The position numbers and the translations under genes were made by a program. 64,000 nt of DNA from assembly GCA_964351315.1 (NCBI GenBank), contig CAYGNH010000002.1, forward strand, positions 216,269 to 280,268, given 5' to 3'. This stretch comes from an uncultured Pseudobdellovibrionaceae bacterium. Its GTDB lineage: Bacteria > Bdellovibrionota > Bdellovibrionia > Bdellovibrionales > JAGQZY01. Positions within the stretch are counted from its first letter, which is position 1. Each line of letters starts with the position of its first letter. This document shows, one piece after another, positions 8,487 to 47,134 of this stretch. Under the pieces are notes generated by a model. It saw nothing but the letters and a program-made list of their open reading frames with translations, was not told the DNA's origin and searched no databases.

Positions 8487-9192
8487 CAGCGCAAAAAATT
8501 CTCTTTTTAAAAGCCTCTTGTCCCTGACGAAAAACAAAGGGATTAAAAAAGAAAAGCAAGCCTTGGTCAGTGGCGAAAAAATTACCAATGAAATGGCTAA
8601 ACTAAACATCCCTGCTTTTTGGATCGTGACTGACAAATTAAAGCAATCTATCCATGATAACCCACGGACCATATTGTTGCCCGAGTCTTTGTTCTCTCAG
8701 TTGGATGTGTGTGGAACCCACTCCCCCCTTCTTTGCGTGGAAACACCCGAGCTGCCGCCCCTAAAGAATAGAGACAGCAGCAAAGCCACCCTGTTTGCCG
8801 CCCTCAGTGATCCCACCAATTTGGGGGCTCTGATCCGAACTTGTGCCGCCTTTGGATGGCCGCAGATCGTTCTTCTCAAAGAGTCCGCCAACCCCTTTCT
8901 GCCAAAAGCCATTCGGGCCGCCAGCGGAACCTGCTTTGCCACCTCTCTTTTCACCGGCCCCAGCATTGAAGATTTAAATGATCCTGAGATTTTGGCTTTG
9001 GACATGAAGGGGCAGAAACTACAGCCAGGAATGATTAAAAGTAATTTAAAGCTTCTGGTCGGAGAAGAGGGAAGAGGGGTTCCCGACAGCTTTTCTGGGC
9101 AAAGAGTCTCTATCCCCATTTCAAACAAAGTCGAGTCCCTCAACGCTACAATCGCCACCAGCCTCTTGGTTTATGAGTGGAGCAAAACCTAA
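8473..9192 (+). CDS. TrmH/SpoU-family RNA 2'-O-methyltransferase
   Basis: SpoU motifs are present: ...NLGALIRTCAAFG..., ...LLVGEEGRGVP..., ...IPISNKVESLNATIATSLLVYE. ATG at 8473 overlaps the rsmG end. Confidence 0.8.
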   Translation: MQKIDSAKNSLFKSLLSLTKNKGIKKEKQALVSGEKITNEMAKLNIPAFWIVTDKLKQSIHDNPRTILLPESLFSQLDVCGTHSPLLCVETPELPPLKNRDSSKATLFAALSDPTNLGALIRTCAAFGWPQIVLLKESANPFLPKAIRAASGTCFATSLFTGPSIEDLNDPEILALDMKGQKLQPGMIKSNLKLLVGEEGRGVPDSFSGQRVSIPISNKVESLNATIATSLLVYEWSKT

Positions 9193-10424
9193 TGCTACAG
9201 CTGCAAAGTTTCCTGGGGATTTTCTTCTTCATCGGCATCGCTTGGCTATTTTCAAACAATAAAAAAAGAATCTCATGGCGTATCGTTGTTTCTGGAATCC
9301 TATTCCAATTGTTTTTAGCCTTAGCCGTCCTAGGCGTCCCGGCCTTTGGCCTATCTGGCCCCTTGCAAGGTTTTTTTCAAGGTGCCAATGATGTCATCCT
9401 AAAACTGCTTAGCTTTACCGAGGCTGGCAGTGGCTTTCTTTTGGGCGATCTGATTAAGCAAGAGAAAAGTGGATTTATTATCGCTTTTCAAATATTGCCT
9501 ATTATTATTTTTCTCTCTTCTCTTATGACCGTTCTCTATCATATCGGTATTATGCAATGGGTGGTGAACGCCTTTGCTTGGGTGATGCAGAAACTGCTCA
9601 ATCTGAGTGGGGCCGAATCTTTGGCTGCAGCCGCCAACGTCTTCGTAGGGCAAACCGAAGCTCCCTTGATCGTGAAACCCTATTTAAAAAATATGACCTC
9701 AAGCGAGCTGTTTTCATTGATGACGGGAGGCATGGCGACTATTGCCGGATCGGTGATGGCAGCCTATGTTGGCTTACTGAAAGACGCCATCCCAAACATT
9801 GGCGGACACCTTCTGACCGCCAGCATTCTTTCGGCTCCGGCCGCCCTGGTGATTGCCAAAATTATGGTCCCCGAAACCGAGACTCCAGAAACCTTAGGGT
9901 CGATTCCGAACGAGACGACCAAAGAGCACGTCAATGTGATTGAAGCTGCAGCCAGTGGGGCCAGCGACGGTTTAAAGTTGGCGGCCAACGTGGCCGCCAT
10001 GCTGTTGGCTTTTGTTGCTATCATCGCCATGCTCGACGCCCTCATCGACTTCACGACCCAGGGGCACCTTTCGCTGGCAATGATTCTTAGCTGGCTGTTT
10101 ACGCCCTTTGCCTTCTTCTTGGGAATTCCCTTTGAAGACCTCTCGGTGGCAGGGACTCTGATTGGTAAGAAAATTGTTTTCAACGAATTCATCGCTTATT
10201 TGGACTTGGCTAAGCTGACCGATATCAACCCACGCAGCCGAATTATTCTTTCTTATGCTCTTTGTGGTTTCGCGAACTTTTCATCGATCGCCATTCAAAT
10301 AGGTGGAATCGGCCCAATGATTCCCGAAAGAAAAAAAGAACTGGCCCAGTTTGGCATTCGATCCGTCATCGGCGGAAGTCTGGCCGCGTTTATTACGGCC
10401 TGCATGGCCAGTCTCTTGATTTGA
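9192..10424 (+). CDS. nupC: NupC/CNT-family concentrative nucleoside transporter
   Basis: Polytopic membrane protein with ...FVGQTEAPLIVKPYLKNMT..LFSLMTGGMATIAGSVMAAY... TAATG overlap with the upstream gene. Confidence 0.85.
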   Translation: MLQLQSFLGIFFFIGIAWLFSNNKKRISWRIVVSGILFQLFLALAVLGVPAFGLSGPLQGFFQGANDVILKLLSFTEAGSGFLLGDLIKQEKSGFIIAFQILPIIIFLSSLMTVLYHIGIMQWVVNAFAWVMQKLLNLSGAESLAAAANVFVGQTEAPLIVKPYLKNMTSSELFSLMTGGMATIAGSVMAAYVGLLKDAIPNIGGHLLTASILSAPAALVIAKIMVPETETPETLGSIPNETTKEHVNVIEAAASGASDGLKLAANVAAMLLAFVAIIAMLDALIDFTTQGHLSLAMILSWLFTPFAFFLGIPFEDLSVAGTLIGKKIVFNEFIAYLDLAKLTDINPRSRIILSYALCGFANFSSIAIQIGGIGPMIPERKKELAQFGIRSVIGGSLAAFITACMASLLI

Positions 10425-10450
10425 CAAGATTGAGCCTCTAATATCGGTGC

Positions 10451-12892
10451 ATGAGAAATGAACGCTTTTGGCTTCTTGGCACCCTATTCGCTTTGTCTGG
10501 ATTCACCAGCCTTGTTTATGAAAGCCTTTGGATTCGCAGCTTTTCAATAGCCTTTGGTAGTACGACTTTATCCATGAGCCTAGTGATTGCTATTTTCTTT
10601 TTTGGACTGGCCGCCGGAAGCCTTCTAGGCGCCCAATGGAATTCAAGAATTCTGCGCCCTCGATTGGTTTACGCAGGCCTGGAAGCTTTCATTGGTGTCT
10701 ATTGTTTCTTCCTGTACTACACCTTCTCGGAACTGCCAGCCGTCCTGTCTTTTTTTGCAACCCTGAACACAAGCCCGCCAACCGTCTTAATCCTAAAATT
10801 TTTCTCAACCTTAATACTAATCACTCCACCGACTGTGGCCATGGGCATGACATTTCCATTGATGGTTCGTCTGTTGTCGCCAGCAGACAGAAGCGTTGCC
10901 CAGAATGTTTCGCGCGTTTATGCTATCAACACATTGGGTGCCCTTTGCGGCGCTTTCCTTTCTGGGTTTGCCCTTATACCTTGGTTCGGACTCTGGGGAA
11001 CCCATTCATTGATGGTCATTCTCAACCTAAATATATTTCTCGTCTTAGTTCGCCGTCCGACCGAATCTCCGATCCAGAAAAAAAACCTCATTCCTCCAGG
11101 GAACGTCGATAAGTCTGCTGATTTATTTCGAACCTTAGTTCTATTCTCCAGCGCTGTCGTGGGTTTCGTCGCCGTCGGTGCAGAAATTGTATGGAACAAA
11201 TACATAACTCTCTTTCTTGGAACTAATATTTATGGTGTCAGCCTCACACTCTCTATTTTTCTTTTCGGAATCTTCTTAGGCTCATTTCTTTTATCTCGTC
11301 TGAAAACCAAACATCGATCTTCGCGTCTTTATATCGGACTCTACGCCCTATCCTTAATTACTACCCTGCTCAGTAGCCATCTTCTCGATCAAGCTCCCCT
11401 GCTTGCTTACCAATGGAAAGACTTTTTCCACTCAGGACTTTTGAGTTCGAAAACTCTGGTCGTGACGTTAATATTGCTGCCACCGACAGCCCTTTTCGGA
11501 GCTCTTTTGCCTCTGACTATTCATCTATTGTGCGCCAACAATACTGACTCCCCAAAATTCAGTGGCCGGGTGTATTCCATAAACACTTTGGGCGGGATTC
11601 TCGGATCTTTGACTGTGGGTCTTTTTCTTATTCCCCGCTTCGGCTCGGCGACCTCTTTGTTTTACCTCGGTTGTCTGCAACTGGGGACATTGTTTTTCTT
11701 GGTTCTATCTCTTGTCAAAGAGAACAAACTTTTTTTAATTGGCCCGTTTTGGTTGGCCGCAACAGGCTTAACATTGCTATTGTTGCCCTTAGTGCAATTA
11801 CAAACCATTGTTCAATCAGCCGAGTACTCCTACACCCATCCAAAAGCCACTGCTGATAGTTTTGCCTCATACATAGATCAATCCGATTTTGATATGCGCT
11901 ATTGGGCGGAAGGCGAAAATAGTGTGGTTAGTCTTCACTATGACATCAATGACAAGGGTGAGTTCGAAACCCAACGTTTGATTTTAAAAAGCAACGGCCT
12001 CAGCGAAAGCTTCTTTAACCTATCAGAGCCAGGGCAAGTCCCAAAATACGAAGGCTTGTTGGCCGTCGTTCCTTACCTTTACCACCCGGAACCTAAAACG
12101 GCCTTTGTCGTCGGCTATGGCGGAGGCTACACCGTCGAAGTTCTATCCAGCCTGGGGCTTGATAAAATCCGAGTGGCTGAAATCGAACAGAAAATTGTAG
12201 AGGCCTCGGATTATGTTTACCTGGGAGGATCTTCAATTTTGCAGAGAGGCAACATTGACCTCAAAATTCAAGATGCGCGCTTTCTACTTAGTCTTTCCAA
12301 TCAAGACCCTTACGACATCATTGTGTCTCAGCCTTCGCACAGTTGGATGAGTGGAGTCGCCAATCTTTTTACCCAAGATTTTTTTCAAATCGTCAAAGGA
12401 CGCTTAAGTAAAAAAGGTCTTTTTTCACAGTGGCTTAATTTGTACAATATGGATCCTCTTACTTTACAAAGTATTATTAGAACCTTTTTTGAAGTTTTCC
12501 CACACGGCGCTATTTTTACAAACAGTGCCGATGATCAGTTGATCTTACTGGGTGGTATTTCTCCTCTATCCTTGCAATACCAAAAGCTGAAGAAGATGAC
12601 AGCGGACATCTATTGGCAGGAGCGCCTCAGTTTCATCCCATTTAATTCCGACTTGGCTCTTCTATCTTACTTCGCAATGGATCGCCAGCAAGCCTTGGTT
12701 CTGAGTGAGAAGGCCCCTTTGAATACCGATAACAATGCTTTTGCCGAAGTCAGGCAAAGTCAACTTTACTACCAAATGGATTCCTCCTCTTGGACCTTCC
12801 GAAAATTTTTATTTGACCACTTTTCACCCTCGATCGGCGAAACAGAGAAACTCTTGCAGCAAGAAATTCAGAAAGCCAACAAAGGCCTTTAA
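10451..12892 (+). CDS. Fused polytopic membrane domain / spermidine-synthase-like (aminopropyltransferase fold) protein
   Basis: 813 aa. The N-terminal region of about 450 aa is multi-TM. The C-terminal region has ...AFVVGYGGGYTVEVL...DIIVSQPSHSWMSGVANLFTQDFF... Confidence 0.75.
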   Translation: MRNERFWLLGTLFALSGFTSLVYESLWIRSFSIAFGSTTLSMSLVIAIFFFGLAAGSLLGAQWNSRILRPRLVYAGLEAFIGVYCFFLYYTFSELPAVLSFFATLNTSPPTVLILKFFSTLILITPPTVAMGMTFPLMVRLLSPADRSVAQNVSRVYAINTLGALCGAFLSGFALIPWFGLWGTHSLMVILNLNIFLVLVRRPTESPIQKKNLIPPGNVDKSADLFRTLVLFSSAVVGFVAVGAEIVWNKYITLFLGTNIYGVSLTLSIFLFGIFLGSFLLSRLKTKHRSSRLYIGLYALSLITTLLSSHLLDQAPLLAYQWKDFFHSGLLSSKTLVVTLILLPPTALFGALLPLTIHLLCANNTDSPKFSGRVYSINTLGGILGSLTVGLFLIPRFGSATSLFYLGCLQLGTLFFLVLSLVKENKLFLIGPFWLAATGLTLLLLPLVQLQTIVQSAEYSYTHPKATADSFASYIDQSDFDMRYWAEGENSVVSLHYDINDKGEFETQRLILKSNGLSESFFNLSEPGQVPKYEGLLAVVPYLYHPEPKTAFVVGYGGGYTVEVLSSLGLDKIRVAEIEQKIVEASDYVYLGGSSILQRGNIDLKIQDARFLLSLSNQDPYDIIVSQPSHSWMSGVANLFTQDFFQIVKGRLSKKGLFSQWLNLYNMDPLTLQSIIRTFFEVFPHGAIFTNSADDQLILLGGISPLSLQYQKLKKMTADIYWQERLSFIPFNSDLALLSYFAMDRQQALVLSEKAPLNTDNNAFAEVRQSQLYYQMDSSSWTFRKFLFDHFSPSIGETEKLLQQEIQKANKGL

Positions 12893-13136
12893 GTTTTAAA
12901 TTGAAACAACATTTACGAAAATCGGCTGGACCTTTGGTGTGTTTTTTAACCAAAACTTAAAGTTTATCCTTCAGTCTCCGAGTAGAAAAATAACGATAAT
13001 AACCGCCATTTGGGGGGATAAGTAACGAGGTGACTATACGACATCTTAGTTCTTTCAGCACGTGGCACGTCGTGCGGTTTTATCGTTTTTTTTCCAATTG
13101 AACTTCGGCAAAAATCAAATCAAAAATCAAACTTTT

Positions 13137-14027
13137 TTAGGCTTTTGTTAGGTTGCTCTTGCTCCATTCCGAGTTCGGTGCTTGGTTCCATAAGCTTAAA
13201 ACAAAACCACCATCGCCACTGCCCGTGGGTTTACAAGCGATAGCTCCCTCGTTGCTAAGATGGGCCATATGGTCGTGCAGGTCCTGACTAATGAGGCCCC
13301 AGGATTCAAAACAGTCATTCGCTAAATTTATAGACTCTCTTAGTAATGAAACCTGCTCTTTGGTTTGCAAGGCTCGCTTGGCTAGGGTCACGGCTTTTTG
13401 CATGCGCTGATCAATGTCCGCACCAAGCTCTGGTTTTTCAGAAATCAATTTTTGAACTCGAGCGATGCAGTCAGAAGTGACTCCCCTTTTTCCACAATAG
13501 GACAAATAAAAATGCGGGCGCCAGGTTCCCTCGAAAAATTGCATGGTGTTAGGTTTCTGGAAACAGAGTCCTTGGTTATTCAAAGCGACAGCCACATCAA
13601 CACCGGAACTTTCCCCATGAAACAGATTTTCTAGGGATTTGGAAAATTCAAATTGATTGGCCTCATCCAAGTGCCCCAAAGCAGTGAACCACTTAGCTAA
13701 ACTCACACACAGGGTCGCACTGGCTCCCATACCGGCTCCCACTGGAATATTACTGCTGAGTCGCAAGACTCCCGAGACATCTTCTCGACGCAAATGAAGA
13801 TTTTGCAATGCCTTTTCCAAGACACCCCAAAAGGCCATTTCTAAATCTGTGTTTTTATGCTGAATCTCTAGTTTGAGCTCAGAACCAGGAACAAATTCAA
13901 AATCAAGAAAACGACTGGCGACGGGAAAGACCAAAGCCGTTCCTCCCCGCAGAACGCTGTGTTCACCGGCTAAAATCCACTTGCCATGGGTTCTAAACTT
14001 GAGCAAAACCAATCTCCTTAATATCAC
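13137..14027 (-). CDS. mvk: Mevalonate kinase (GHMP family)
   Basis: ...HGKWILAGEHSVLRGG... and the GHMP motif ...IPVGAGMGASATLCVS... The alternative TTG start at 14006 has better AAGGAG spacing. Confidence 0.8.
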   Translation of the reverse strand: MILRRLVLLKFRTHGKWILAGEHSVLRGGTALVFPVASRFLDFEFVPGSELKLEIQHKNTDLEMAFWGVLEKALQNLHLRREDVSGVLRLSSNIPVGAGMGASATLCVSLAKWFTALGHLDEANQFEFSKSLENLFHGESSGVDVAVALNNQGLCFQKPNTMQFFEGTWRPHFYLSYCGKRGVTSDCIARVQKLISEKPELGADIDQRMQKAVTLAKRALQTKEQVSLLRESINLANDCFESWGLISQDLHDHMAHLSNEGAIACKPTGSGDGGFVLSLWNQAPNSEWSKSNLTKA

Positions 14028-14964
14028 TCAAACAAGTCCATTGGTCTTTAAGGGCTTGATTATAAAAAAGCAGGCTTAAGTCTTTCTGATCTTTTCGCCA
14101 CAGCAAATGGATATTTGGGCCCGCATCCATCGTTACTAAAGGTCCATCGCCATGGGCCTCCCAGAAGTCGCGAGTCAGATTCAAAAGTGTTACAGTTCCC
14201 GGCAAAAAGTAACCAAAAGGAGGAGCACTGGTTTCAAATAAAGCGTGCATATCCCAAAACTCGGACCATAGAACTTGATAAAGCTGGGGCCAATTCAAAT
14301 TGAGAGTGGCTTTCTCCACTTTCCTCAAGCGCTCTACTGACCGCTCGACCCGCCCTAGAAACAAATCGCTGTTCGCCACCCGCCGATGGGCTTCTGACGA
14401 CGAAACCCTTTTGGCCCCTGCACCAACAAGAATCACCATGTGCTGAAGACTCATGTTGTCTGAAGGGTAACTTCGCACGCCTTTGTCATCCCAAATCACC
14501 AAGCCGTCCATGAAAGACCGACAAGAAGATCCTGAACCCTGTGCGGACAACTTAACTTTTTCCTCTAGGGAAATATTTTTCCCAGAAATTTCTGAGAAGG
14601 CTATACAACAAGCCTCCGTTAATGCGGCGAAACTGGAGGCGCTGCTTGCTATCCCGCAGTCGGCTGGAAAATTGTTCGCCGACTGAACTTTGAACCCACT
14701 GGTGACTGAAAAATAGTTTTTCAGGCGCCCTAAGTGCTTCAGATACTTCTGTTTACCCTTATCACTCATTGCGAAAGGATAGTCGCTGGGCAGAGGACTC
14801 CAAGAATCCACATCCGCCTCTGTTAAAACCACCTCTGTTTTCAAATGCCCCAACGTCCATGATAGAGAGGGGTTGGTCGGAATATTTTTTTCATAATCCT
14901 TTTTCCCCATATACTTTATCCAAGCAATGTTGGAAGGTTTTTCGGATTTCCATTGCTTAGGCAT
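13993..14964 (-). CDS. mvaD: Diphosphomevalonate decarboxylase
   Basis: ...SNIAWIKYMGKKD...PTNPSLSWTL... and ...NFPADCGIASSASSFAALT... are typical of MVD. The gene overlaps grxB by 8 nt. Confidence 0.85.
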   Translation of the reverse strand: MPKQWKSEKPSNIAWIKYMGKKDYEKNIPTNPSLSWTLGHLKTEVVLTEADVDSWSPLPSDYPFAMSDKGKQKYLKHLGRLKNYFSVTSGFKVQSANNFPADCGIASSASSFAALTEACCIAFSEISGKNISLEEKVKLSAQGSGSSCRSFMDGLVIWDDKGVRSYPSDNMSLQHMVILVGAGAKRVSSSEAHRRVANSDLFLGRVERSVERLRKVEKATLNLNWPQLYQVLWSEFWDMHALFETSAPPFGYFLPGTVTLLNLTRDFWEAHGDGPLVTMDAGPNIHLLWRKDQKDLSLLFYNQALKDQWTCLSDIKEIGFAQV

Positions 14965-15634
14965 TCAGAGTCTCTCCAAGGGCTAAATCCCAATGCAGGG
15001 GGACCTTCGACTTCTCACTCATTTCATTCATATAAGTTTCTATTTTTTCGGGAAAATTGAAACCTTTGACCGTGGTCAAACAACGTAGCGAGGCGAAAAC
15101 ATGAAAGTCATCAATACTCAGTCGATCACCCCAAAAAAATGGGTCTCCAACAATCAGTTTTTCTAACTCAGACAAATGGACACTTGCTTGATTTATTAAG
15201 TTTTTTGAATTTGACAAGCTTTTTGAAAAGGGCCCAATGGATCTTTCTTTTTTTATGGTGAAATACTGCCGGGCTGATGCGGTGGCAAACTCTGGGAGAT
15301 TCATGGCCACCCACCGAGGCATGGCCAAGGCATAGTGATATTTCCGAATATCCAGCAACCACTGGTTAAGGGTTCCGTCGCCTTTGGAGGCCCCAACCCT
15401 GGGTGGACCAAAAGACTCTAGGCTATCCACATAAGAAATGATTTCAAGGCTTTCAGGAAGATAAGCCCCTTCAAGCGTTTGCAAAATAGGCAACATTTTT
15501 TGGCCAATCATTGAAATCGGCGAGTCTTCATCATCATTCAACAAAACTTTTTCAGTCACAGGAACAGCCTTTAAACCAAAAATCATTCTAGCTTTCACGC
15601 AATAGGGGCAGTGATCGTAATGAAACAAGGTCAA
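14957..15634 (-). CDS. grxB: Glutaredoxin 2 (GST-like two-domain glutaredoxin)
   Basis: ...LFHYDHCPYCVKARMIFGLKAVPV..VLLNDDEDSPISMIGQKMLPILQ... aligns along its length with E. coli GrxB as I recall it. The likely start is TTG at 15634 (GGAGG-N5-TTG), forming a TTGA overlap with the upstream stop. Confidence 0.85.
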   Translation of the reverse strand: MTLFHYDHCPYCVKARMIFGLKAVPVTEKVLLNDDEDSPISMIGQKMLPILQTLEGAYLPESLEIISYVDSLESFGPPRVGASKGDGTLNQWLLDIRKYHYALAMPRWVAMNLPEFATASARQYFTIKKERSIGPFSKSLSNSKNLINQASVHLSELEKLIVGDPFFWGDRLSIDDFHVFASLRCLTTVKGFNFPEKIETYMNEMSEKSKVPLHWDLALGETLNA

Positions 15635-16530
15635 TTTGACCTCCGAACGGTGGCCCCCGCATGAGCTTCGCTTAAACAACTGATGTACTGAAAGTCCTCA
15701 GCAAAGCAAAGAGCTTTGATTTCTTCACTCCGAGAGGACTCACCAACGACAATGACAGTGTCCATGCCCATCGCTCCACATCCCTTTGCCGCCAATACAG
15801 CTTCGTGTTCACGAAGCTGATAGACGCTTTTCTTTACGGTTTGATCACTTAAGCCCAACTCGTTAAGAAGATCATAATAGTAGTTCAGAGATTCACAAAA
15901 AACTTTTAAATTCTGCTGATCCAAAGAGGTTCGAGCCGCCAACAGAATTGGAATAAGGTTTTTCAAGTTTTTTGATTTTAAATCTTTGAGATGTTCATGA
16001 GTGGCCAGTTTTTTCCCGGTATGAAAAATAAAAATATCATAGCCTGGGAAGGGCCATGCCAATTTCTCAGCCAAATAATTCATTCCATCGTACCAACAAA
16101 GGCCACCACAGACTTGCGCCACCAAGTCAGCGCCACTGGGTTTATAGTCTCCACCCGCATGAGCTTGATACTGGGGAACAAAATCAGCCAAGGTATTCAA
16201 TATTGGAATGGTGCGATCACCCGCCCCTTCGCTGACAAAAGAATCATAGAGATAAACCGCAAGATACTCGGCGGTGGAACGACCAAAACCGCCTCGCCCT
16301 TCATGGGGATCTAAAACAGAAAAACCCACATCCTTATGATGAAGTTTAGAGCGCAGACGTCCCGCCGGACTGTCTTCGTGGAAACCAAAGGTGTTGTCTT
16401 TAATAGATTTAATAAAAAAAGCGGGTTCTGTCGCTGCGATCAATGAGGCTGTTCCATTGATTGCCAAGTATTCACCAACGATAAAGGTCTTACTTGGAAT
16501 TTCAAAAACCAAATCCAGTTGATTAGACAT
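15631..16530 (-). CDS. Phosphomevalonate kinase (GHMP / ERG8 type)
   Basis: The N-terminal ...PSKTFIVGEYLAINGTASLIAATEP... pattern, a GHMP-like core and operon context support the call. TAATG overlap with mvaA. Confidence 0.72.
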   Translation of the reverse strand: MSNQLDLVFEIPSKTFIVGEYLAINGTASLIAATEPAFFIKSIKDNTFGFHEDSPAGRLRSKLHHKDVGFSVLDPHEGRGGFGRSTAEYLAVYLYDSFVSEGAGDRTIPILNTLADFVPQYQAHAGGDYKPSGADLVAQVCGGLCWYDGMNYLAEKLAWPFPGYDIFIFHTGKKLATHEHLKDLKSKNLKNLIPILLAARTSLDQQNLKVFCESLNYYYDLLNELGLSDQTVKKSVYQLREHEAVLAAKGCGAMGMDTVIVVGESSRSEEIKALCFAEDFQYISCLSEAHAGATVRRSN

Positions 16531-17831
16531 TAACGAGCGCTATTCTCCGGCGCCGCCATTTGCTTTCGAAGACCTTGCAGGATCTGCCATGCATCCGTGT
16601 GAGTGATTCGTTTTTTCACCGCTAACAGTTGCTCCAATTTTCTTTGCAAGGGTCTAGTTTCATCAGGAGTGGCTCCCACTCCCAATGTCAGATTTTTAAT
16701 ATGAAGTTTCATATGCCCTTCGATGATACCAACCGTGGTCAGCGCATTTAAAGCTCCCAGGTTTTGCACCAAGCCGACAGCTCCACAAATTCGTGCCAGC
16801 TCGTTGGCACTGTGGACATCGAGCATTTCAAGACAGATGCGAGCTGTTGGGTGCAGCGATGTCACGCCTCCGACGGTCCCTACAATCAACGGCGCTTTAA
16901 ACATTCCAGTAAGAGTCCCATCCTGATAGCGCCACTGAGTGATCGAGCGGTACTGTCCGCTACGAGCCGCATAAGCGTGAACACCAGCTTCGACCGCACG
17001 CCAATCGTTACCGGTGGCGATCAAGATCGGATCAATTCCATTCAGAACACCCTTATTGTTGGTTGCCGCACGATAAGGATCATTCTCGGCAAAAAGAGAG
17101 GCCTCTTGAATTTTCTCACCCATTTCAGGACTCACGTTTCGCAGTTCAACGGTGGCGACAGTGAGTTTAGTATCAACCAGGTTCGAGAGAATGCACATGG
17201 TGACTTTCTCTCCGCTTAAATCTTGAATGGGGCCTTTCAAGTATTCACAGACTTGATTGATCATATTTGCACCCATAGCGTCGCAGGGATTGAACAGAAC
17301 ATGGAAGACCGCCATGGTGCCACCATCATTGCGATCAATCGATCGAAGCTGAATGTCTTCGACCCCTCCACCACGTTTGACCATAGTCGCGGCGACCTGT
17401 TCGTTAACCTCTTTAATCCACGTTGCCTTGGTTGCAGATAGCAGATTGTTTAGCTTTTCAAAGTTTGCCACTTTCGCGATTTGAATTTGGCCAATAATCG
17501 TGTCACCCATGGTGCGAGTTGTGATCGCTCCATCTTGCGCGACCCAACGAGCTGTTTTACTAGCGGCTGCAATAATAGAAGTCTCTTCCACCGCCATGGG
17601 TATCACCCGAGGGACATCGTCAATAACAAAATTGGTCGCCACTCCCAGAGGAAGCTGAAAGTAGCCAATGGAGTTCTCGATAAAGTTATCGGCCAGGTCG
17701 ATGTCATGGAGACCTCCGGAAGTCAGGTAATCGATGTCGGTTTTTGTTAAAGCGCCCATTTCCATCAATCTTTGAAATCTTTGGTGACGGTTCAATTTAG
17801 AAAAACCTTTAAACAATTCCTTTATGTCCAT
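16530..17831 (-). CDS. mvaA: Hydroxymethylglutaryl-CoA reductase, class II
   Basis: 433 aa with no membrane anchor. ...ENSIGYFQLPLGVATNFVIDD..., ...DAMGANMINQ..., ...GTVGG... are typical of class II HMGR. Confidence 0.9.
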   Translation of the reverse strand: MDIKELFKGFSKLNRHQRFQRLMEMGALTKTDIDYLTSGGLHDIDLADNFIENSIGYFQLPLGVATNFVIDDVPRVIPMAVEETSIIAAASKTARWVAQDGAITTRTMGDTIIGQIQIAKVANFEKLNNLLSATKATWIKEVNEQVAATMVKRGGGVEDIQLRSIDRNDGGTMAVFHVLFNPCDAMGANMINQVCEYLKGPIQDLSGEKVTMCILSNLVDTKLTVATVELRNVSPEMGEKIQEASLFAENDPYRAATNNKGVLNGIDPILIATGNDWRAVEAGVHAYAARSGQYRSITQWRYQDGTLTGMFKAPLIVGTVGGVTSLHPTARICLEMLDVHSANELARICGAVGLVQNLGALNALTTVGIIEGHMKLHIKNLTLGVGATPDETRPLQRKLEQLLAVKKRITHTDAWQILQGLRKQMAAPENSAR

Positions 17832-18871
17832 TTCAACAGCTTCCTTTTACCAACAAGAGATTCCACTTTATCAATTCCTAAACAAAACATAGCCACTTTT
17901 AATTCCTGATCCAACTGCTGCATGCGATCGATCAGTGTTTCCGGTCCGTCCACCGCGGCCTGCAAAATGGGTTTTGCAAATCCCACTTTTTCAGCTCCTA
18001 GAGCTAACAGCTTCGCCGCTTGCAGACCATCTCTGACGCCACCCGAGGCCCACAAAGGAAAACTTACCCCAGTTTTGAATCCATTTTCTAGAGAGTCAAC
18101 CGTGGAAATCCCCCAATCAAAAAATGTCCGAGCCACTCGGTGCCCAAACTCATTTTCATTCATACGAAAAGCTTCTACCCGACCCCAGTGGGTCCCACCC
18201 TGACCGCTGACATCAACAGCCGCCAGGTTCATTTCTTTCAATGAATCAAAGGACTGTTCCGAAAAACCGCAGCCTGTTTCCTTTAAAACCACAGGAACAG
18301 TCAAGTCTCCAATCAGTTGCTTCAGAGCCTCAAGCCCTCCCTTAAACTGTGGAGTTCCCTCGGGCTGAATCGCCTCCTGCAGCGGGTTGCAATGCACCAC
18401 CAAAAACTGGGCCTGTAAGGAGTCCACCAAAGCTTGAATATCGACGGTTGGTCGGCCAATAATTTGTGACAAGCCTATATTTCCAAAAATAATATTGTTT
18501 GGATATTGAGCGCGAAGCTTTTCGCACTCCAACCTTCCATTTGGATCAAACAACTGGCGCCGTTGCGACCCGACTCCCATCATCCAACCCAGCTCAGCAC
18601 AAGCCTTAAGAATGGTGTCATTCAGCGCTGTCGCTCCTTCATGACCCAAGGTCATTGAACTCACAAAAAGGGGTGACGCCAGGGCGTGGCCAAAAGCTTC
18701 ACAACCTAGGCTCACATCCTCAAGATTAATATTTGGAATGGGATTATGTTGAAACTGCAAACTAGAAAACTGGTCCAGCAAAGACTGGCTCTCATCGCGC
18801 AATGATATTTCGATGTGATCCTTCTTCCTCTGATTGAATAGTTCAGAGGAAGTCTGCTTTTCAGTTTCCAA
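17822..18871 (-). CDS. fni: Isopentenyl-diphosphate delta-isomerase, type 2 (FMN-dependent)
   Basis: ...RKKDHIEISL..., a TIM-barrel FMN pattern ...VVLKETGCGFS...DVSGQGGTHW..., and ...ASGGVRDG... TTG start. Confidence 0.85.
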   Translation of the reverse strand: METEKQTSSELFNQRKKDHIEISLRDESQSLLDQFSSLQFQHNPIPNINLEDVSLGCEAFGHALASPLFVSSMTLGHEGATALNDTILKACAELGWMMGVGSQRRQLFDPNGRLECEKLRAQYPNNIIFGNIGLSQIIGRPTVDIQALVDSLQAQFLVVHCNPLQEAIQPEGTPQFKGGLEALKQLIGDLTVPVVLKETGCGFSEQSFDSLKEMNLAAVDVSGQGGTHWGRVEAFRMNENEFGHRVARTFFDWGISTVDSLENGFKTGVSFPLWASGGVRDGLQAAKLLALGAEKVGFAKPILQAAVDGPETLIDRMQQLDQELKVAMFCLGIDKVESLVGKRKLLKWT

Positions 18872-18912: not shown

Positions 18913-19260
18913 TTACTTCGGCATCACCTGTTCGATAATTTTTGTAAACGCCTCGGGATCCGTCACTGCGATATCGGCAAGGACTTTCCGATCTAATTCA
19001 AGATCCGAATTAATCAAAGCACCCATGAATCTGGAGTAACTGGTTCCGTTCAATTTGGCCGCAGCAGAGATTCGAGTGATCCATAATTTACGGAACTCTC
19101 TTTTCTTAACTTTTCGATCCCGATAAGCATAGACCATTCCACGATCATTTTTTTCTTTAGCGACAGCATAGATCCGGCTACCAGCACCACGGTACCCTTC
19201 AGCACGGTTCAATACTTTATTACGACGTCGGCGAGCTTTAACTCCTCTTTTTACACGCAT
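18913..19260 (-). CDS. rplT: 50S ribosomal protein L20
   Basis: MRVKRGVKARRRRNKVLNRAEGYRGA... is a canonical L20 sequence. Confidence 0.97.
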   Translation of the reverse strand: MRVKRGVKARRRRNKVLNRAEGYRGAGSRIYAVAKEKNDRGMVYAYRDRKVKKREFRKLWITRISAAAKLNGTSYSRFMGALINSDLELDRKVLADIAVTDPEAFTKIIEQVMPK

Positions 19261-22676: not shown

Positions 22677-23879
22677 TTAATAGGTCACGTGATGATTGAG
22701 AGACTCATGGATACGCGGGTCTTTTATAGGAACCAAATTGTGTTTTTCCAACCAGCGACTCACCACAAACAAAAAAGCTCCAGCGAAGCCAAGGAAGACT
22801 AAAATTTCCATCCAAGAAAAAGCCACGAACTCGTTGGTATAGTTAGGATATACGATCCAAAAAATATCTACGTACTGCATAATCAAAACCAAAGAGCAAA
22901 CCATAACAAGATGCTTTGGAGTTCTCTTGGCCCAACGAGGAAGAAGCGCAATAAAAGGAACGATAAACTTAAAGATCAACAAAGCCACCGAAACTTCCAT
23001 CCACCCGCCATGGGTGCGGTGAAGATAGTACACCGTTTCTTCTGGAAGGTTGGCATACCAAATCAACATAAATTGGGAAAAAGCAATGTAAGCCCAAAAC
23101 ACAGTAAAGCCTTTAAGAAACTTGGCCAGATCATGCACATGCTCCATCGTCATCAATCCCGTCACCCAACCTTTTGACTGACAAAACAACGCCATCAAGA
23201 TCAAAAAGGCCAGCGTCGATTGAAAAAGGCCGGCAAAACAGTAGACCCCAAAAATCGTCGAGAACCAATGGGGTTCAAGGCTCATCAATAAATCCACACT
23301 AAACAAAGAGTAACTCAAAGCAAAAACCAAAAGAAAGGCCACTGACGCTGGAACCATCTTATGAGTCCAACTTTCATCACCATCGCTGTCTTGAGCCACG
23401 GAATAACCGACGATCTTCTTACCAAAGAAAAGCCAAAGACCAACAATAACCACCATACGCACAGCCCAAAAGCCCATGTTGAGGTAGGCGCTTTTGCCTT
23501 GAAGAATGGCATCTCCGGCTACGACATCGGCATCCAACCAGAGATAAAGGTTGGGGCCGGCTGCTAGCAGCACAAGTCCGCCTACAAAAACCACCGGCAT
23601 AAAGGCGGTCATGGCCTCGGCCAAACGGCGAATGTTCACGCTCCAACCAGCTCGCACCGCATGCTGAATGGCGGTAAAAAACAAACCGCCCAATGCTAAA
23701 GAGGCAAAATAAAAATAACTGGTTAAATAAGCATGCCAAACACGCTCTTTATCAACCGCAAAACCGGCCGCTAACCCGGCAAGCCCTAGCCCCATCAGAG
23801 CCATCAAAAAGATTTTTCCGTTCCCAGGAATTTCAAATTTTTTAGGCTCAACTTTTTCAACGTTAACTGAATGACCCAT
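22677..23879 (-). CDS. actF: Alternative complex III subunit ActF (polytopic membrane protein)
   Basis: About 10 predicted TM helices. It is the last gene of the act operon. ATG at 23879 forms a TAATG overlap with actE. Confidence 0.75.
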   Translation of the reverse strand: MGHSVNVEKVEPKKFEIPGNGKIFLMALMGLGLAGLAAGFAVDKERVWHAYLTSYFYFASLALGGLFFTAIQHAVRAGWSVNIRRLAEAMTAFMPVVFVGGLVLLAAGPNLYLWLDADVVAGDAILQGKSAYLNMGFWAVRMVVIVGLWLFFGKKIVGYSVAQDSDGDESWTHKMVPASVAFLLVFALSYSLFSVDLLMSLEPHWFSTIFGVYCFAGLFQSTLAFLILMALFCQSKGWVTGLMTMEHVHDLAKFLKGFTVFWAYIAFSQFMLIWYANLPEETVYYLHRTHGGWMEVSVALLIFKFIVPFIALLPRWAKRTPKHLVMVCSLVLIMQYVDIFWIVYPNYTNEFVAFSWMEILVFLGFAGAFLFVVSRWLEKHNLVPIKDPRIHESLNHHVTY

Positions 23880-24499
23880 TATTGTCCTCGTGGCGTTTGT
23901 TTTTGAAGTTGACGAACGTAATTGACGATGGCCCAACGATCGATCTCTTTGGGAGCTTGATGGATGTAACTTCCCATCAAACCTTGTCCAGCCGTGATAA
24001 TATGAAAAATACGGCCATCAGGAAAATCTCGAATTTTGTCCGATACTAAGGATGGCACCACAACAGGTTGCCATTTTTCAGCCACCGGTCCATCGCCTTT
24101 TCCGCCTTCACCATGGCAAACCATACAAAAGTTATTGAAGTGGGTTTTCCCACGTTGAGTGATCTCAGCATCACCGGCCACGGGGTTCTGCATCTTTTGC
24201 CCAGCCAACTCGGGCTGGGTCCAATACAAATAAGGCGTGCGGTTTTTTGGCCAACTGCCTACTGGCGGCGTCAACATCGAGCTCTTCTCTCTATCCTGTG
24301 GGTGAAAGTCCTGCGCCTTAAGGGCTGGCTGCTCCATCATATCTTGGATCACTTCAATGTTAGGCTCGTTTCCCTTAGGACCACAGCCGGTGATCAAAAG
24401 CCCTGCAACGGTCAGCGCCGTCAACAACGTCACACTACCGACCAAGGCCATCAGAAGAGTTTTCATAAATTTACATAGTTCAGAAAATACACTCATCAT
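23879..24499 (-). CDS. actE: Alternative complex III subunit ActE (monoheme cytochrome c lipoprotein)
   Basis: Signal peptide with lipobox LITG|C. It has a single CMVCH heme motif. Confidence 0.8.
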   Translation of the reverse strand: MMSVFSELCKFMKTLLMALVGSVTLLTALTVAGLLITGCGPKGNEPNIEVIQDMMEQPALKAQDFHPQDREKSSMLTPPVGSWPKNRTPYLYWTQPELAGQKMQNPVAGDAEITQRGKTHFNNFCMVCHGEGGKGDGPVAEKWQPVVVPSLVSDKIRDFPDGRIFHIITAGQGLMGSYIHQAPKEIDRWAIVNYVRQLQKQTPRGQ

Positions 24500-25023
24500 T
24501 AATACTCCGCCACTCGCTTCACTTCTTCAGCTCCAAGTTCTTTCAAAAAGGCTTCTACTTTCTCGACGCTGTACCCCTCTTCATCATCAGGAACCCACAA
24601 CGCAAACTTATGGGAAGTTAAGTCCGGATCAATGATTGGAGGGTTCACTTTTGGCAAACCATTCAGAAAAAACATGGTTCCCACCGAGAATAGGGCTGCG
24701 AATAAAATTGTTAACTCAAAAGTTACAGGGATGAAGGCCGGCAAAGAAAACAAAGGTTTCCCGCCCACGTTAATCGGCCAACTGACAGCACTGGTCCAAT
24801 ACTGCAGCAGCAGACCACAACCACAGCCAGTCAAGCCAGCAACAAATGTGACGTAGGGAATGCCCGACCTTTTTATGCCGACCGCCTCTTCCATGCCATG
24901 GACAGGAAAAGGAGTGATGGCATCAAACTTTTTATAACCGGCATCTCGCATTTTTGCAGCGGCCTCTAAAATTTTATCGTCGTCACTCCAAATTCCGGCG
25001 ACACCACTTTGACGTTTCGCCAT
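24499..25023 (-). CDS. actD: Alternative complex III subunit ActD (DUF3341-type)
   Basis: 174 aa with a soluble N-terminal part and two TM helices. It sits between the NrfD-like and cytochrome c subunits. Confidence 0.75.
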   Translation of the reverse strand: MAKRQSGVAGIWSDDDKILEAAAKMRDAGYKKFDAITPFPVHGMEEAVGIKRSGIPYVTFVAGLTGCGCGLLLQYWTSAVSWPINVGGKPLFSLPAFIPVTFELTILFAALFSVGTMFFLNGLPKVNPPIIDPDLTSHKFALWVPDDEEGYSVEKVEAFLKELGAEEVKRVAEY

Positions 25024-26378
25024 TAGTGACCTCCCTTTTTCTTACCGACATACAATACAGGCTTTACTTCGGCGATCGAAATCGCAGGGAAAGCACGCAG
25101 GTACAGCAAAAACAATGTTAAAAACATTCCAAAACTTCCGAACAGAATAGCCGCATCGTAAATACTCCAATCATACATCCCCCAGTTGGAAGGAAGGAAA
25201 TCACGATGGAGTGAAGTCACGGTGATCACAAAGCGTTCAAACCACATGCCGATATTCACGAAAATTGAAACGACGAACATAATCGGAATGCTCCGACGAG
25301 CGGCTCGGAACCAAAAAATTTGCGGAATAAATACGTTACAAGAAAACATGATCCAATAGGACCACCAGTAAGGACCTAGGGCTCTATTGATAAAAGCATA
25401 CTGTTCATACTTAACGCCAGAGTACCAAGCGATAAATAGCTCTGAGCAATACGCGTATCCCACCAACATTCCCGTGCACATGATAATTTTGTTCATGGCC
25501 TCCATATGATCAATGGTTATGTAATCTTTAAATTTTGGAAAGCCTATGCGGACCAAGGTTAAAAGAGTCACAACCATTCCGAAGCCAGAGAAAATGGCCC
25601 CAGCCACAAAGTAAGGCGGGAAAATGGTGGTGTGCCAACCGGGTAGAGAGGCCACCGCAAAGTCAAAAGATACGATGGTGTGAACCGAAAGGACCAGGGG
25701 TGTGGCTAATCCCGCCAACAACATATAGACCATTTCGTAATGGCTCCAGTTTCGGGTCGACCCACGCCACCCCAAAGAGAGAGCCCCATAAACAGTTTTT
25801 CTAATTTTGCTTTTAGCTCGATCTCGAACCGTCGCAAAATCTGGAACCAGCCCAACATACCAAAAAACAATAGAGACGGTCGCGTAAGTGGAGACCGCAA
25901 AAACGTCCCACAACAAAGGCGAGCGAAAATTCACCCACAAAGGTCCTCGCTGGTTAGGATAAGGTAAGAGCCAAAAATCCAACCAGGGACGCCCAGTGTG
26001 AATCAAAGGAAAAATCCCAGCAGTCATCACCGCGAAAACCGTCATCGCTTCCGCCGAACGGGCGACTGAGGTGCGCCACTTTTGTCGGAATAAAAAGAGA
26101 ATCGCAGAAATCAAAGTTCCGGCATGGCCGATACCAATCCAGAACACGAAGGTCACGATGTCAGTTCCCCAACCCACAGGATGGTTGGTTCCCATCAGTC
26201 CCATCCCTGTAAAAAGAATAGTGGCTACGCTGGCTAGATAAAACAATAAAAGTGACTTGGCTGAAAAGAACATCAGCATCCACTGTTTACCAGGAACCGT
26301 TTCTACCGGCTCACAAATATCGTCGGTAATATCTTTGTAAGTCTTATCACCAAGAATTAATGGGTTACGATCCATCAT
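25023..26378 (-). CDS. actC: Alternative complex III subunit ActC (NrfD/PsrC-like quinol-interacting membrane subunit)
   Basis: 451-aa polytopic protein of NrfD-like architecture. TAATG overlap with actB. Confidence 0.85.
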
Positions 26379-29300
26379 TAGTGACCTTCCTTGTGCTCTG
26401 TCTCGCCGTGCTTAGGAGCGTCGTGCCCACCACCATTGTGATGACCTCCGCCCAGTTCACGTTGGGTGTTTCTAATTTTAGCAAGGTATCTCACTCGAGG
26501 AGCCGCATTGAACTCTTCCAGCAAGGTGTAGTGTCTTTGGCTTTGGAACCATTTGTTGACTTCACTGTCCTTGTCGTTGAGATCGCCAAAAACAATGGCA
26601 TTCGTTGGACAAACAGACTGGCAAGCGGTTTGGATGTCGCCATCCTTCAGCTCACGATTCTCGTCTTTGGCAATATTTTTACCTTCTTTAATTCTTTGTA
26701 CACAGAAAGTGCACTTCTCCATAACCCCACGAGTTCGAACCGTAACATCTGGGTTCAAGGCCATGTGCATGGGTTCTTTGCGATGATGACCATCATAATA
26801 GAACCAATTGAATCGACGAACTTTGTAAGGACAGTTGTTTGAGCAATAACGGGTGCCCACACAGCGGTTATAAACCATGTCGTTGAGGCCCTCATCGCTA
26901 TGGACAGTGGCCAGTACCGGACAAACGGTTTCGCAGGGAGCATTTTCACAATGTTGACACATAACGGGCTGAAAAATGGCATCCACGGATTTTTTCTCGT
27001 CACCACTATAGTAACGATCGATCCGAATCCAGTGCATTTCTCGGCCACCGAGAACATATTTTTTTCCAACAACAGGAATATTATTTTCTGACTGACAAGC
27101 CACCATACAGGCAGAACATCCGGTACAGGAATTAAGGTCCACACCCAACCCCCATTTGTGACCCTTGTATTCATGTTGGCCCCAAATGCTGAAGATCTTG
27201 TGCTTGTGTAACCCTATGTCTCCCGACTGCTTATACAACTTCTCAGAAGTTTCAACCGCCAACTGTCGACCATGCATAGTGTGATGGCCTTGGGTCTGAG
27301 CTAAATCGTACAGCTTATCAAGCTTGGTAAGTTTCACAGAAAGGCCGGCATACTGCAACGTCCCCTCTTGGGCCACTGCAAAGTCTTGCACGTTAAAACC
27401 GACATCTTTTTGAATATCTCCGCCCTGGCGCCGACCATAGCCAATGGCCACAGCCACTGAGCCTGGGTTTTGCCCTGGTGAAACATAAACCGGTAAGTCG
27501 ACCGAGTTATTCTCGGTTTGAACTCGAACCATCGAACCATCGCGAAGTTTCATTTCATCGGCAAGGATTGGAGAAATAACTAAATAGTTATCCCAAACAA
27601 TTTTACTGACCGGATCTGGGAGCTCTTGCAGCCAAGAAACATTGGCTAGACTACCATCATGAATTCCCACCTTGGTATACAAAGAAAGTTCCAGATCAGA
27701 CTCTTCAGTCGCAATCGAGATTTTACTTAGTGCGGCTGGGTTAAATCCGTTGCCTCTTTCCATGCCATCAAAGGTGGTGCCACTAAAGCCTTTTTGTAAA
27801 AAGTCGAACCAAGCTTGCTCACTCCCCAGCTGGCTCATCCAGCGGGTTTTCAAATAATCGAAATAAGTCTCTTCATTGGTCACGGGTTTATTCATCGATT
27901 TCGACCAGGCCATTAGACTGTCGCCAAAAGATCGCGTGTTATGAAGAGGTTGAATCGTGGGCTGTTGAATGTTGACCAAACCGGGTTCAAACTCGTAGTC
28001 CCCCCAGTTTTCCATTTGATGACCGGCAGGAGCGACATAGTCAGCCATACCCGTGGTTTCATCCATCCAATTGTTGGTAGAGACCACCACTTCGACCTTA
28101 GCCATAGCTTCTGAGAAGCCAAACGAGGCCGGTAAACTGTAGGCCGGATTCACGTCATTGATAATCAATGTTTTCACTTGGCCGTCATTCATGGCCTTCA
28201 AAAGTTCCTGCAGGGAACGGTCGGAGGACTCAGTCGCCATCAAACCGTGATTCCAATGAATCGTGGCACCATTGTTACCAAGAAGATCGTTTAAAAAGTT
28301 AACCGCAATTTGCAAAGAAACGGCGTCTTTGGTTTTCGCTTGCAAACCACCAGCGACAACCATCCCTTGCCCCATATTATCAGCTAGGTCTTTAACAATC
28401 GCCGCGAAGTCCTCGTGGCTCATATCTAACTTTTCATAAATATTTTTATAGGGCTCTGTGAATTTCAAAGCAGCCGGACCGGCATTGGCCTTGTTTTGGA
28501 CAAAGGCCAACTCGTGAATCAAACCCAACACCAATGGCAGTTGCAGAGAGGGCTTGATACCGTAGTTATCGTCTGCATTGAAGGATGTTAAGCTGGGCAC
28601 CGACTGAAACGAAACCAACCTTGACATCTGTTGATCTGGGTTACGCCCTTCTACAAAGAGTTTACTGGACTCGGTTGGATTTAAGTAGGTCCCTAAAAAG
28701 TCAGCATCGATCGAAACAATCATCTTAGCTTTGTCGTAGCGGTATTTAGGGACGGCGGCTTTTCCAAAGCTGATCTCTGCCGCTTCACGAACTTCCGACT
28801 GATTCACCGGTGTCCAAGTGTGAACTTGGGCTCCTGTGTTTTGTGAAAATTTATTAAGGAGATTTTTCAAACTAGGAGAAGGCACTTCATTGGTCAGGAT
28901 GCGCACACTGCCTTTTTCCAGCTGCTCGGCAATTTTGGAATCCAAAGTGGCCCAGTCGCGAGGCACCGAGATCTTTTTACCCCGACGAACATCGTCGCCC
29001 TTTTTATATTGAGAGTTTATAATTGGAGTTCGAACCCGGTCTGGATCATAGAGGCTCAACAACTGCGAGCTGCCGCGCACACTAAGGCCTTTTCCGTTTC
29101 CTGGGTAGTCCTTGTTGCCTTGCAGATGCAAAGGTCGACCTTCGCGGGTTTTTACAGTCACCGCAAAGCCTTCGCGACCATCAAACACACTGGAAGCGTA
29201 GTAATTGGGAAGTCCAATCACCACTTCAGAGGGGCGCTTGTTATAGGGTATAATTTTTTGCACCGGTCGACGAACACAGGCCGCCGAAGAAAGCGCAATA

Positions 29301-29476
29301 CTGGCCCCCATCAGTTTCATAAACTGGCGACGAGCCAATCCGCTTTTATCGTCCTCATCTTTCAAAGGTGAGGTTTGAAATTCTTTTTCCGCTTGCTCGA
29401 TAAACTCGGGTGTCTGGTATTTTTCGTCCAAGCTTTTCCAGTAAGAGTTTTGCTTTGTTTCTTGATGATTTTCCAT
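26378..29476 (-). CDS. actB: Alternative complex III subunit ActB (molybdopterin-oxidoreductase-like domain fused to a 4Fe-4S ferredoxin domain)
   Basis: Tat motif ...[18 protein letters not shown]. The C-terminal third holds several Cys clusters ([39 protein letters not shown]). The tail is His-rich. Confidence 0.9.
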
Positions 29477-42370: not shown

Positions 42371-42376
42371 AGCTCC

Positions 42377-44956: not shown

Positions 44957-45351
44957 TCGGACCTTCCTATGGTACTGCTTTTTCTATTAAAACCTATATA
45001 TATTGAGAACTTAAGTAAACTCGGCCCACCAAGGCCCGGATCGCGGCCTAGGTCGAGAGGTCATAGCGGTCGGATCAACAATCGCGCCGCATCATTTTAA
45101 AAATTTCAAGTTTTGCAACCGAAGACCCTTAAAATTTCTCTTGTTCCTCTAAAATCAATTTTTTGGATTGCCACTGCCGAAAGAGTTCTGCATTTATTTT
45201 TTTCGGCGCCAAAGATGGCTCATAAAAAAAAAAGAGGCAACAAAACCAACATTCGCTATAAGCGAGACCATTAACAACAGTGTTTTCATGTAGACTTTCC
45301 CGCTAGAAACTTTCTATAGAATACATGGATTATTTTATGGGGATGAATGAA

Positions 45352-46293: not shown

Positions 46294-46372
46294 AGATTAA
46301 AGTTTAGCAAAGACTAGGGGTAATTATTAGAAAAAAGTCTCTGGACTGTTGAATAGTTTTCCTTGGACCGCA

Positions 46373-47002
46373 TCAGCCACGATAAATATTGATCAAAAAA
46401 GAGATCATCGGCGTAAAAACATCGTGCTGAGAGGAGGCATCGGCCGTGACGTTGGTGCTGGCACTTTCAGCTTTCCCGTAACGAAAACTTTTATAGACAA
46501 GTTGAGGCCCGATAGAAAGAAAGCGACCCAGACGGAAATAATAAGTGGCGTCGACCTGGAACCCCAATCCCTCGGTGTAGTCTGATTCTGCCACATTTTC
46601 TAGGGCTTGCTTGGAATAAGGGAAAAAGGTTCCTTTTAAAGCCCATCCGTATTTGACGTAGCCGAAACTGGCCCCCAAAGACGTCCGCGAAGTCAATGGT
46701 GCACTGCCATCAATATCCTGGGTTTCGCCGGTATACAGGACACCAAAATAAAAGCCGTTTCGAAAAATATAGCCTAACTGAATGTCGTAGAATAAAAAGC
46801 TTCGAGTGCGATCAGCGACACCTCCTCCGGTGACCTGATTGTTCTCATCAATCCGGTTGTAGAAAAGGGAAGGACTAAAAACCAAGCCATAGTCTCGCTG
46901 CCATTTATCCAGATCCGAAAAGGTTTCGTAGGATTTGTAGTCTTCGTACTGAGCCTGGACGGCAGAATGGGCAAACAGGATAATAAAGAGAAAAATACGC
47001 AT
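46373..47002 (-). CDS. Small outer-membrane beta-barrel protein
   Basis: Signal peptide MRIFLFIILFAHSAVQA. Alternating aromatic/hydrophilic beta-strand pattern throughout. Confidence 0.65.
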   Translation of the reverse strand: MRIFLFIILFAHSAVQAQYEDYKSYETFSDLDKWQRDYGLVFSPSLFYNRIDENNQVTGGGVADRTRSFLFYDIQLGYIFRNGFYFGVLYTGETQDIDGSAPLTSRTSLGASFGYVKYGWALKGTFFPYSKQALENVAESDYTEGLGFQVDATYYFRLGRFLSIGPQLVYKSFRYGKAESASTNVTADASSQHDVFTPMISFLINIYRG

Positions 47003-47134
47003 GCCCTATTATTTGATGGACTCGCGATAGAATCAAGCCATTCGTTGGTCAGCCTCACCAAACCAGCGCAATCGCCATTGAACTCCAGGATCTTTGTGAT
47101 TAAACTAGAAAGGTTCGCGGAGGAAGGTCCAGTC

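Follow-up and report, generated by a model that had tools for sequence, protein, structure and literature searches.

A 64,000-nucleotide (nt) stretch of DNA from an uncultured Pseudobdellovibrionaceae bacterium (contig CAYGNH010000002.1, positions 216,269 to 280,268; hereafter the window) carries grxB, the gene for glutaredoxin 2, as an internal cistron of a mevalonate operon. The gene lies between those for a phosphomevalonate kinase-like (PMK-like) GHMP kinase and diphosphomevalonate decarboxylase (MVD, gene mvaD), and the operon is read on one strand in the order IDI2-HMGR-kinase-GrxB-MVD-MK, where IDI2 stands for type 2 isopentenyl diphosphate (IPP) isomerase (IDI-2), HMGR for HMG-CoA reductase, and MK for mevalonate kinase. 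Both the enzyme and the operon are of known kinds; their combination is confined to a single clade of uncultured bacteria, and no description of it was found: a full-text search of incomplete coverage returned no paper placing GrxB in a mevalonate operon, in agreement with the original prediction, whose author knew of none. The reading we favor, with about even confidence, is that GrxB is an ordinary glutathione-dependent disulfide reductase that became trapped in, and is co-expressed with, a housekeeping operon. A link that is only positional is the most likely outcome, and a neighborhood of single origin is weak evidence.

Identity and anatomy of grxB

Judged from its sequence, the window gene is a genuine GrxB (glutaredoxin 2), with a match to the family far beyond chance, and its product is predicted to be catalytically intact. 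The protein scores 240.3 bits against the NCBIfam model NF007702 ('glutaredoxin 2', cut-off 133), which covers residues 1–218 of 225, and 236.7 bits against TIGR02182 (GrxB, cut-off 186.65). Pfam detects GST_N_3 (PF13417) at residues 3–73 and Glutaredoxin2_C (PF04399, 133 bits) at residues 89–217. The solved Grx2 structures 3IR4, 4KX4, and 1G7O are collinear with the protein (E ~1e-51; for 3IR4, E 2e-52 over residues 1–215), and the dithiol active site C9-P10-Y11-C12 can be read in the N-terminal thioredoxin/GST-N fold. The NCBIfam, Pfam, and Protein Data Bank (PDB) matches confirm what had been proposed from a first inspection of the DNA, namely a full-length GrxB with a CPYC site and a GST-like C-terminal half inside a mevalonate operon. 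The gene and its translation signal are positioned as follows:

14957–15634, minus strand: grxB (glutaredoxin 2, 225 residues), with a TTG start, CPYC at residues 9–12, and a GST-like helical C-terminal domain

15640–15644, minus strand: Shine-Dalgarno sequence GGAGG, read from the sequence, 5 nt before the grxB TTG and within the 3' end of the upstream kinase gene

On the minus strand, the TTG start (15634–15632) overlaps the kinase stop TGA (15633–15631) to give TTGA, and the grxB stop TAA (14959–14957) overlaps the mvaD ATG (14964–14962) by 8 nt; both overlaps had been described earlier and are correct to the base. The proposed start at TTG 15634, with GGAGG 5 nt upstream, is likewise present in the sequence, and homologs share its position: the equivalent codon is used in 11 related loci, where it is mostly ATG (TTG in locus L013). 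The homologs thus confirm the TTG as the start, and not that of the longer open reading frame (ORF) that begins at 15679. TTG opens three of the six operon genes in the window (IDI-2, grxB, and, as called, MK), while the grxB genes of relatives mostly start with ATG.

The residues of the YDHCPYC-VKAR motif are all intact, and the motif is invariant in the 58 GrxB proteins of the linked clade. W215 is the sole residue that sets the linked-clade proteins apart from other GrxB, and a clade residue comparison across these 58 members revealed no specialized surface. With one clade-specific residue and every motif residue in place, neofunctionalization of GrxB is unsupported.

Distribution and history of the linkage

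The nearest homologs of the window GrxB come from metagenome-assembled genomes (MAGs) labelled Bdellovibrionales, Pseudobdellovibrionaceae, or Oligoflexia. The complete order IDI2-HMGR-kinase-GrxB-MVD-MK was read directly in the DNA of 10 distinct lineages (the window, which is L012; L013/L014; L001; L015; L099/L100; L095; L096; L097; L098; and L106–L109), within which identity to the window falls to ~51–55% for GrxB at the lowest and to 30–44% for the kinase. Two further lineages (L002 and L101) have a split form, IDI2-HMGR-kinase-GrxB, with MVD and MK elsewhere. About 20 more linkages are implied by GrxB and kinase matches on the same longest contig, some of these contigs being only 1.6–3.4 kb.

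Outside this group the operon lacks the additional gene. A metagenome scan with a kinase profile recovered 79 more distant operons, whose kinases are 28–37% identical. In 41 of them MVD is the next gene after the kinase, no more than 192 nt away; another 24 have at least 900 nt beyond the kinase and no GrxB, and 14 are uninformative. Neither GrxB nor any other inserted gene occurs in the 65 informative distant operons of the same gene order, which bears out the earlier statement that canonical mevalonate operons hold pathway enzymes only, and no ORF lying inside the operon was seen in any of the 79. The possibility that other mevalonate loci acquired GrxB-, GST-, or Grx-like genes on their own was considered and rejected: a GrxB profile hidden Markov model run against every ORF of at least 70 residues from the fetched loci found none below E = 0.28.

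In a neighbor-joining tree of 120 GrxB homologs, the linked proteins all fall in one clade, which is nested within Bdellovibrionales GrxB and leaves the enterobacterial and Neisseria proteins outside; the insertion therefore happened once. The sister clade of the linked proteins is unlinked to mevalonate genes (L103, L105). Elsewhere in the Bdellovibrionales, grxB lies beside topA/secF (L003), a Na:Ala symporter gene (L004), or transaldolase and RNase H genes (L005), upstream of nrdA (L006), or beside a GNAT gene (L008), and a BCCT gene is also among its unrelated neighbors outside the linked arrangement. One protein, P0048 from L003, is nested in the linked clade and yet is unlinked; the mevalonate operon of the same genome (L102) lies ~1.2 Mb away and runs rplT-IDI2-HMGR-kinase, after which comes a cold-shock gene. 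The survey of neighborhoods in relatives was suggested at the outset, with grxB unlinked from mevalonate genes as an outcome that would refute the idea, and it partly goes that way: grxB is unlinked in the sister clade, in other Bdellovibrionales, and in one nested genome, and is linked in 10 lineages. Recurrence of the linkage in an independent lineage was not seen among the 65 distant operons, the sister clade, and the other Bdellovibrionales.

In the simplest history, a single intragenomic insertion was passed on vertically; the operon later broke two or three times, and grxB separated from it once. The gene has a GC content of 42.6% (window, 45.8%), and both its GC and its GC at third codon positions (GC3) resemble those of the neighboring genes, which gives no indication that it was imported recently. 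Horizontal import was rejected on the strength of this neighbor-like composition together with the nesting of the clade among Bdellovibrionales, and not proteobacterial, GrxB. A local origin of the insertion was also tried, since genes for a SpoU methylase and a spermine synthase lie near grxB in the sister loci L103 and L105, as they do in the window; by tblastn these are non-homologous to the window genes, and the resemblance is a coincidence.

Genes unrelated to isoprenoid synthesis are kept across the linked loci, with thrS-infC-rpmI-rplT upstream and a nucleoside transporter and a SpoU methylase downstream. The grxB linkage is not kept more strictly than this surrounding synteny, the flanking genes being equally conserved and one genome being unlinked, so the retention of grxB by itself says little. 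Other genes have entered these operons or abut them. In L098 a PDDEXK_2 transposase-like gene (8989–9855) is inserted between grxB and MVD, and a cold-shock-domain gene is found between IDI-2 and HMGR in L097 (4239–4463) and after the kinase in L102 (9263–9457).

General reductase or dedicated partner

According to the favored reading, the common ancestor of one uncultured Bdellovibrionales clade gained grxB between the PMK-like kinase gene and mvaD in a single insertion, and the gene has been inherited vertically from then on. In E. coli, Grx2 is abundant and reduces mixed disulfides with glutathione; it is GST-like and of broad specificity, and its physiological clients are poorly defined. 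By analogy, we infer a like activity for the window protein, which would reduce mixed disulfides with glutathione through its CPYC site and would serve the whole cytoplasm. The operon position would then be a way to housekeeping-level expression, for a useful gene trapped in an essential and very syntenic operon, and would not mark a pathway-specific partnership. A general rather than a dedicated role is argued by the unrelated grxB contexts outside the clade, the separation of grxB (L003) from its operon (L102), and the lack of specialization, and further by the unrelated neighbors that are kept equally well and the relatives that tolerate other insertions (L097, L102, and L098). The original prediction had gone further, reading the linkage as a sign that some pathway enzyme is redox-controlled or repaired. 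That step is not supported, given the single origin, the absence elsewhere, the one separation, the missing specialization, and the equally syntenic flanks.

Several observations nevertheless weigh against a general role and favor an alternative that we hold to be less likely: GrxB, made in fixed proportion to the mevalonate enzymes, would be dedicated to keeping their cysteines reduced. By resolving disulfides or removing bound glutathione on the PMK-like kinase, MVD, MK, or IDI-2, it would protect the sole route to IPP during the oxidative episodes of a predatory life style. First, a shared operon generally predicts functional relatedness, and here the coupling is tight. The position of grxB between the kinase and MVD genes is constant in 10 lineages despite divergence (GrxB to ~51% identity, the kinase to 30–44%), and grxB stayed with the kinase half when the operon split in L002 and L101. 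Second, four of the five pathway enzymes have gained cysteines that are fixed and specific to the clade: C116 in IDI-2, C145 and C212 in the kinase, C311 in MVD, and C167 in MK. Of the 80 clade-specific columns, these gains account for 5, a share 3.6-fold above that expected from composition; no cysteine was lost, and Tyr is enriched 3.3-fold in the same single clade. Third, the kinase has an invariant Cys in its phosphate-loop motif, KGCGAMGxD, where other GHMP kinases have Ser or Thr. Fourth, MvaD and MvaS of S. aureus are S-thiolated with coenzyme A (CoAlated) under diamide stress (PMC5989533), and mevalonate enzymes can therefore be thiol-redox targets.

These points have counterweights. 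Because the linkage arose once, it has the weight of one event, and grxB has left the operon in one nested genome. The cysteine gains all belong to that one clade and are confounded with it, and residues of low mutability are generally enriched in it, as the figure for Tyr illustrates. The invariant phosphate-loop Cys is present equally in 73 kinases from unlinked operons, and the Cys that is CoAlated in S. aureus MvaD is not conserved here (GDGPLVTMDAGPN vs GYPCYFTMDAGPN). The GrxB protein itself is without a specialized surface. The cysteine signal and the S-thiolation in S. aureus are thus leads, not evidence. In its more specific form, in which Grx2 would be a stoichiometrically co-translated thiol-repair subunit that keeps newly acquired cysteines of the kinase, MVD, MK, or IDI-2 reduced, the proposal is doubtful.

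The stakes differ between the two outcomes. A thiol-repair subunit would make this the first bacterial isoprenoid-precursor operon to encode a glutathione-based redox control module, and it would supply a rare defined set of physiological clients for the enigmatic GrxB family; we know of no description of thiol-based control of the bacterial mevalonate pathway. A link that is only positional would show how an essential operon captures and retains an unrelated housekeeping gene, and would warn against inferring function from a neighborhood of single origin. In either case the layout makes the question of GrxB clients concretely and cheaply testable, in a family whose clients are obscure.

An improbable alternative ties GrxB to the end products of the pathway and not to its enzymes. 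The protein would have a non-classical, GST-like activity, such as the glutathione-dependent reduction of a small molecule (a quinone or dehydroascorbate) or a membrane-associated, CLIC-like role. The two-domain GST-like architecture of GrxB and the presence of quinones among the downstream products of the pathway are consistent with this, as are the dehydroascorbate reductase and ion-channel activities reported for E. coli Grx2 in a preprint (bioRxiv 10.1101/2021.08.28.458008). Against it, the sequence is unchanged relative to ordinary GrxB, no quinone or prenyl-transferase gene accompanies grxB in the window operon, and the basis of the idea is one preprint and analogy.

The mevalonate operon and its expression

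The remaining genes of the operon, and the ribosomal-protein gene that precedes it, are:

17822–18871, minus strand: type 2 IPP isomerase (IDI-2), 349 residues, the first operon gene; TIGR02151 312 bits, above cut-off

16530–17831, minus strand: class II HMG-CoA reductase, 433 residues; TIGR00532 316 bits, above cut-off; PF00368

15631–16530, minus strand: PMK-like GHMP kinase, 299 residues; its stop TGA at 15633–15631 overlaps the grxB start

13993–14964, minus strand: mvaD, diphosphomevalonate decarboxylase-like protein, 323 residues; Pfam MVD-like_N and MDD_C; TIGR01240 146 bits

13137–14027, minus strand: mevalonate kinase; TIGR00549 135 bits, below the cut-off of 163; GHMP_kinases_N

18913–19260, minus strand: rplT (L20), 41 nt upstream of IDI-2 and behind thrS-infC-rpmI

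The mvaD score of 146 bits is below the equivalog cut-off of 171 for TIGR01240, with the expected Pfam domains present. The longest ORF for mevalonate kinase starts at GTG 14027 and gene callers place the start at 14006; the end of mvaD is overlapped either way. All five junctions (IDI2/HMGR, HMGR/kinase, kinase/grxB, grxB/mvaD, and mvaD/MK) overlap, by 1–14 nt or more, so that the packing of grxB is that of any pathway gene and nothing special. Across the linked lineages, the kinase stop overlaps the grxB start as ATGA, TTGA, or TGATG in seven (the window, L013, L015, L099, L095, L001, and L106–L109); elsewhere gaps of 20–145 nt precede grxB.

This anatomy is the ground for holding that grxB is probably co-transcribed and translationally coupled, and the packing, with its stop/start overlaps, is consistent with both, as had been proposed. 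The gene is most likely transcribed together with IDI2-HMGR-kinase-MVD-MK, and possibly also with the upstream infC-rpmI-rplT, and its translation probably falls to ribosomes that have just finished the kinase at the TTGA/ATGA overlap. No convincing terminator was seen in the 41 nt between rplT and IDI-2, so read-through from infC-rpmI-rplT is possible. Consensus scans detected no promoter or terminator of grxB's own above the level of shuffled sequence: there were 11 promoter-like matches against 8.7 in shuffles and 11 terminator-like matches against 9.7, for a consensus from which that of the phylum may differ. A hairpin that would sequester the ribosome-binding site, GAGGTCA-AAT-TGACCTT over the Shine-Dalgarno sequence and start codon, was rejected, with a z of -0.44 against shuffles and no counterpart in L013, L099, or L095. 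The least probable of the alternatives, that grxB belongs to the operon in appearance only, with an internal promoter, independent (for example, stress) regulation, and overlaps that reflect mere compaction, can draw on weak sigma-70-like matches inside the kinase gene (15898–15871 and 16062–16033; the consensus may not be that of the phylum) and on the gaps of 107–145 nt before grxB in L096 and L002, but such matches are no commoner than in shuffled sequence and the grxB start overlaps the upstream stop in most lineages.

The association with ribosomal-protein genes extends beyond the linked clade. Among the distant mevalonate loci (L016–L094), 17 of 35 have rplT within 200 nt upstream of IDI-2 and in the same orientation, which suggests an old ribosomal-protein/mevalonate super-operon in the phylum. 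At residue 116 of IDI-2, 39 of 40 proteins from unlinked operons have Trp, and all nine from the grxB-linked clade have Cys.

The PMK-like kinase

The 299-residue protein encoded upstream of grxB has no Pfam match and no NCBIfam model above cut-off, reaching only 22 bits on mevalonate kinase. Its AlphaFold 2 model (pLDDT 94) has the GHMP-kinase fold, with mevalonate kinases as its nearest structures (TM 0.77, 8TEB), and a PDB profile search gave weak matches to MK and Lin0012. Of the earlier designation 'phosphomevalonate kinase', the fold thus stands; the PMK identity matches no curated model, and we infer that role from the operon position and the presence of a separate MK. The family as a whole is without a Pfam or NCBIfam model, and the source records call its members 'mevalonate kinase' or 'hypothetical'. 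The window kinase also has a pair of cysteines in the sequence CGGLC at residues 141–145.

Comparison with known systems

The window protein shares with Grx2 of E. coli and Salmonella (1G7O, 4KX4, and 3IR4) its length, the CPYC site within YDHCPYC-VKAR, and the combination of GST_N and Glutaredoxin2_C. The genetic setting differs. The grxB gene of enterobacteria and Neisseria is monocistronic and far from any mevalonate genes (L007, L009, and L010), whereas that of the window lies within a biosynthetic operon and opens with a TTG that overlaps the stop of the gene before it.

The operon itself matches the Bdellovibrio-like metagenomic operon IDI2-HMGR-PMK-MVD-MK in its five enzymes, their order, and their strand, and in both cases rplT often lies directly upstream; the difference is the grxB cistron between kinase and MVD in the window clade, which has no equivalent in the 65 informative operons. 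The mevalonate pathway has been described as a hallmark of predatory bacteria (PMC4646340).

In S. aureus, the CoAlation of MvaD and MvaS (PMC5989533) is a reversible thiol modification of mevalonate enzymes, and thus the kind of damage that a glutaredoxin would reverse. The thiol there is coenzyme A and not glutathione, the modified MvaD Cys is not conserved in the window, and the S. aureus mevalonate operon encodes no de-thiolating enzyme.

Other features of the window and related loci

Among the 30 window ORFs screened, none is a gene for glutathione synthesis, HMG-CoA synthase, or thiolase. In L101, a GCS2-family (PF04107) carboxylate-amine/glutamate-cysteine ligase-like gene (14160–15617) lies 5.5 kb from grxB and may be relevant to thiol supply. 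In L006 (region 10001–13539), from a Bdellovibrionales MAG whose chromosome measures 1.56 Mb, the gene for the large subunit of class I ribonucleotide reductase follows ~440 nt downstream of grxB on the same strand. To our knowledge E. coli Grx2 is not a reductant of ribonucleotide reductase, which makes this pairing curious. Three Bdellovibrionales MAG chromosomes, those of L005 (OZ245336.1), L006 (OZ242172.1), and L008 (OZ240230.1), measure only 1.40–1.56 Mb, a size that is small for this group.

Within the window, an 813-residue multi-pass membrane protein with a weak spermine-synthase domain (10451–12892) converges on the end of the operon and is kept there in L013. An alternative complex III-like cluster with NrfD, ActD, and cytochrome c occupies 22677–29476, its annotation being taken from the matching locus L012, and a type II secretion/type IV pilus-like cluster with T2SSE, secretin, T2SSF, pseudopilins, and PilM spans 40679–55542.

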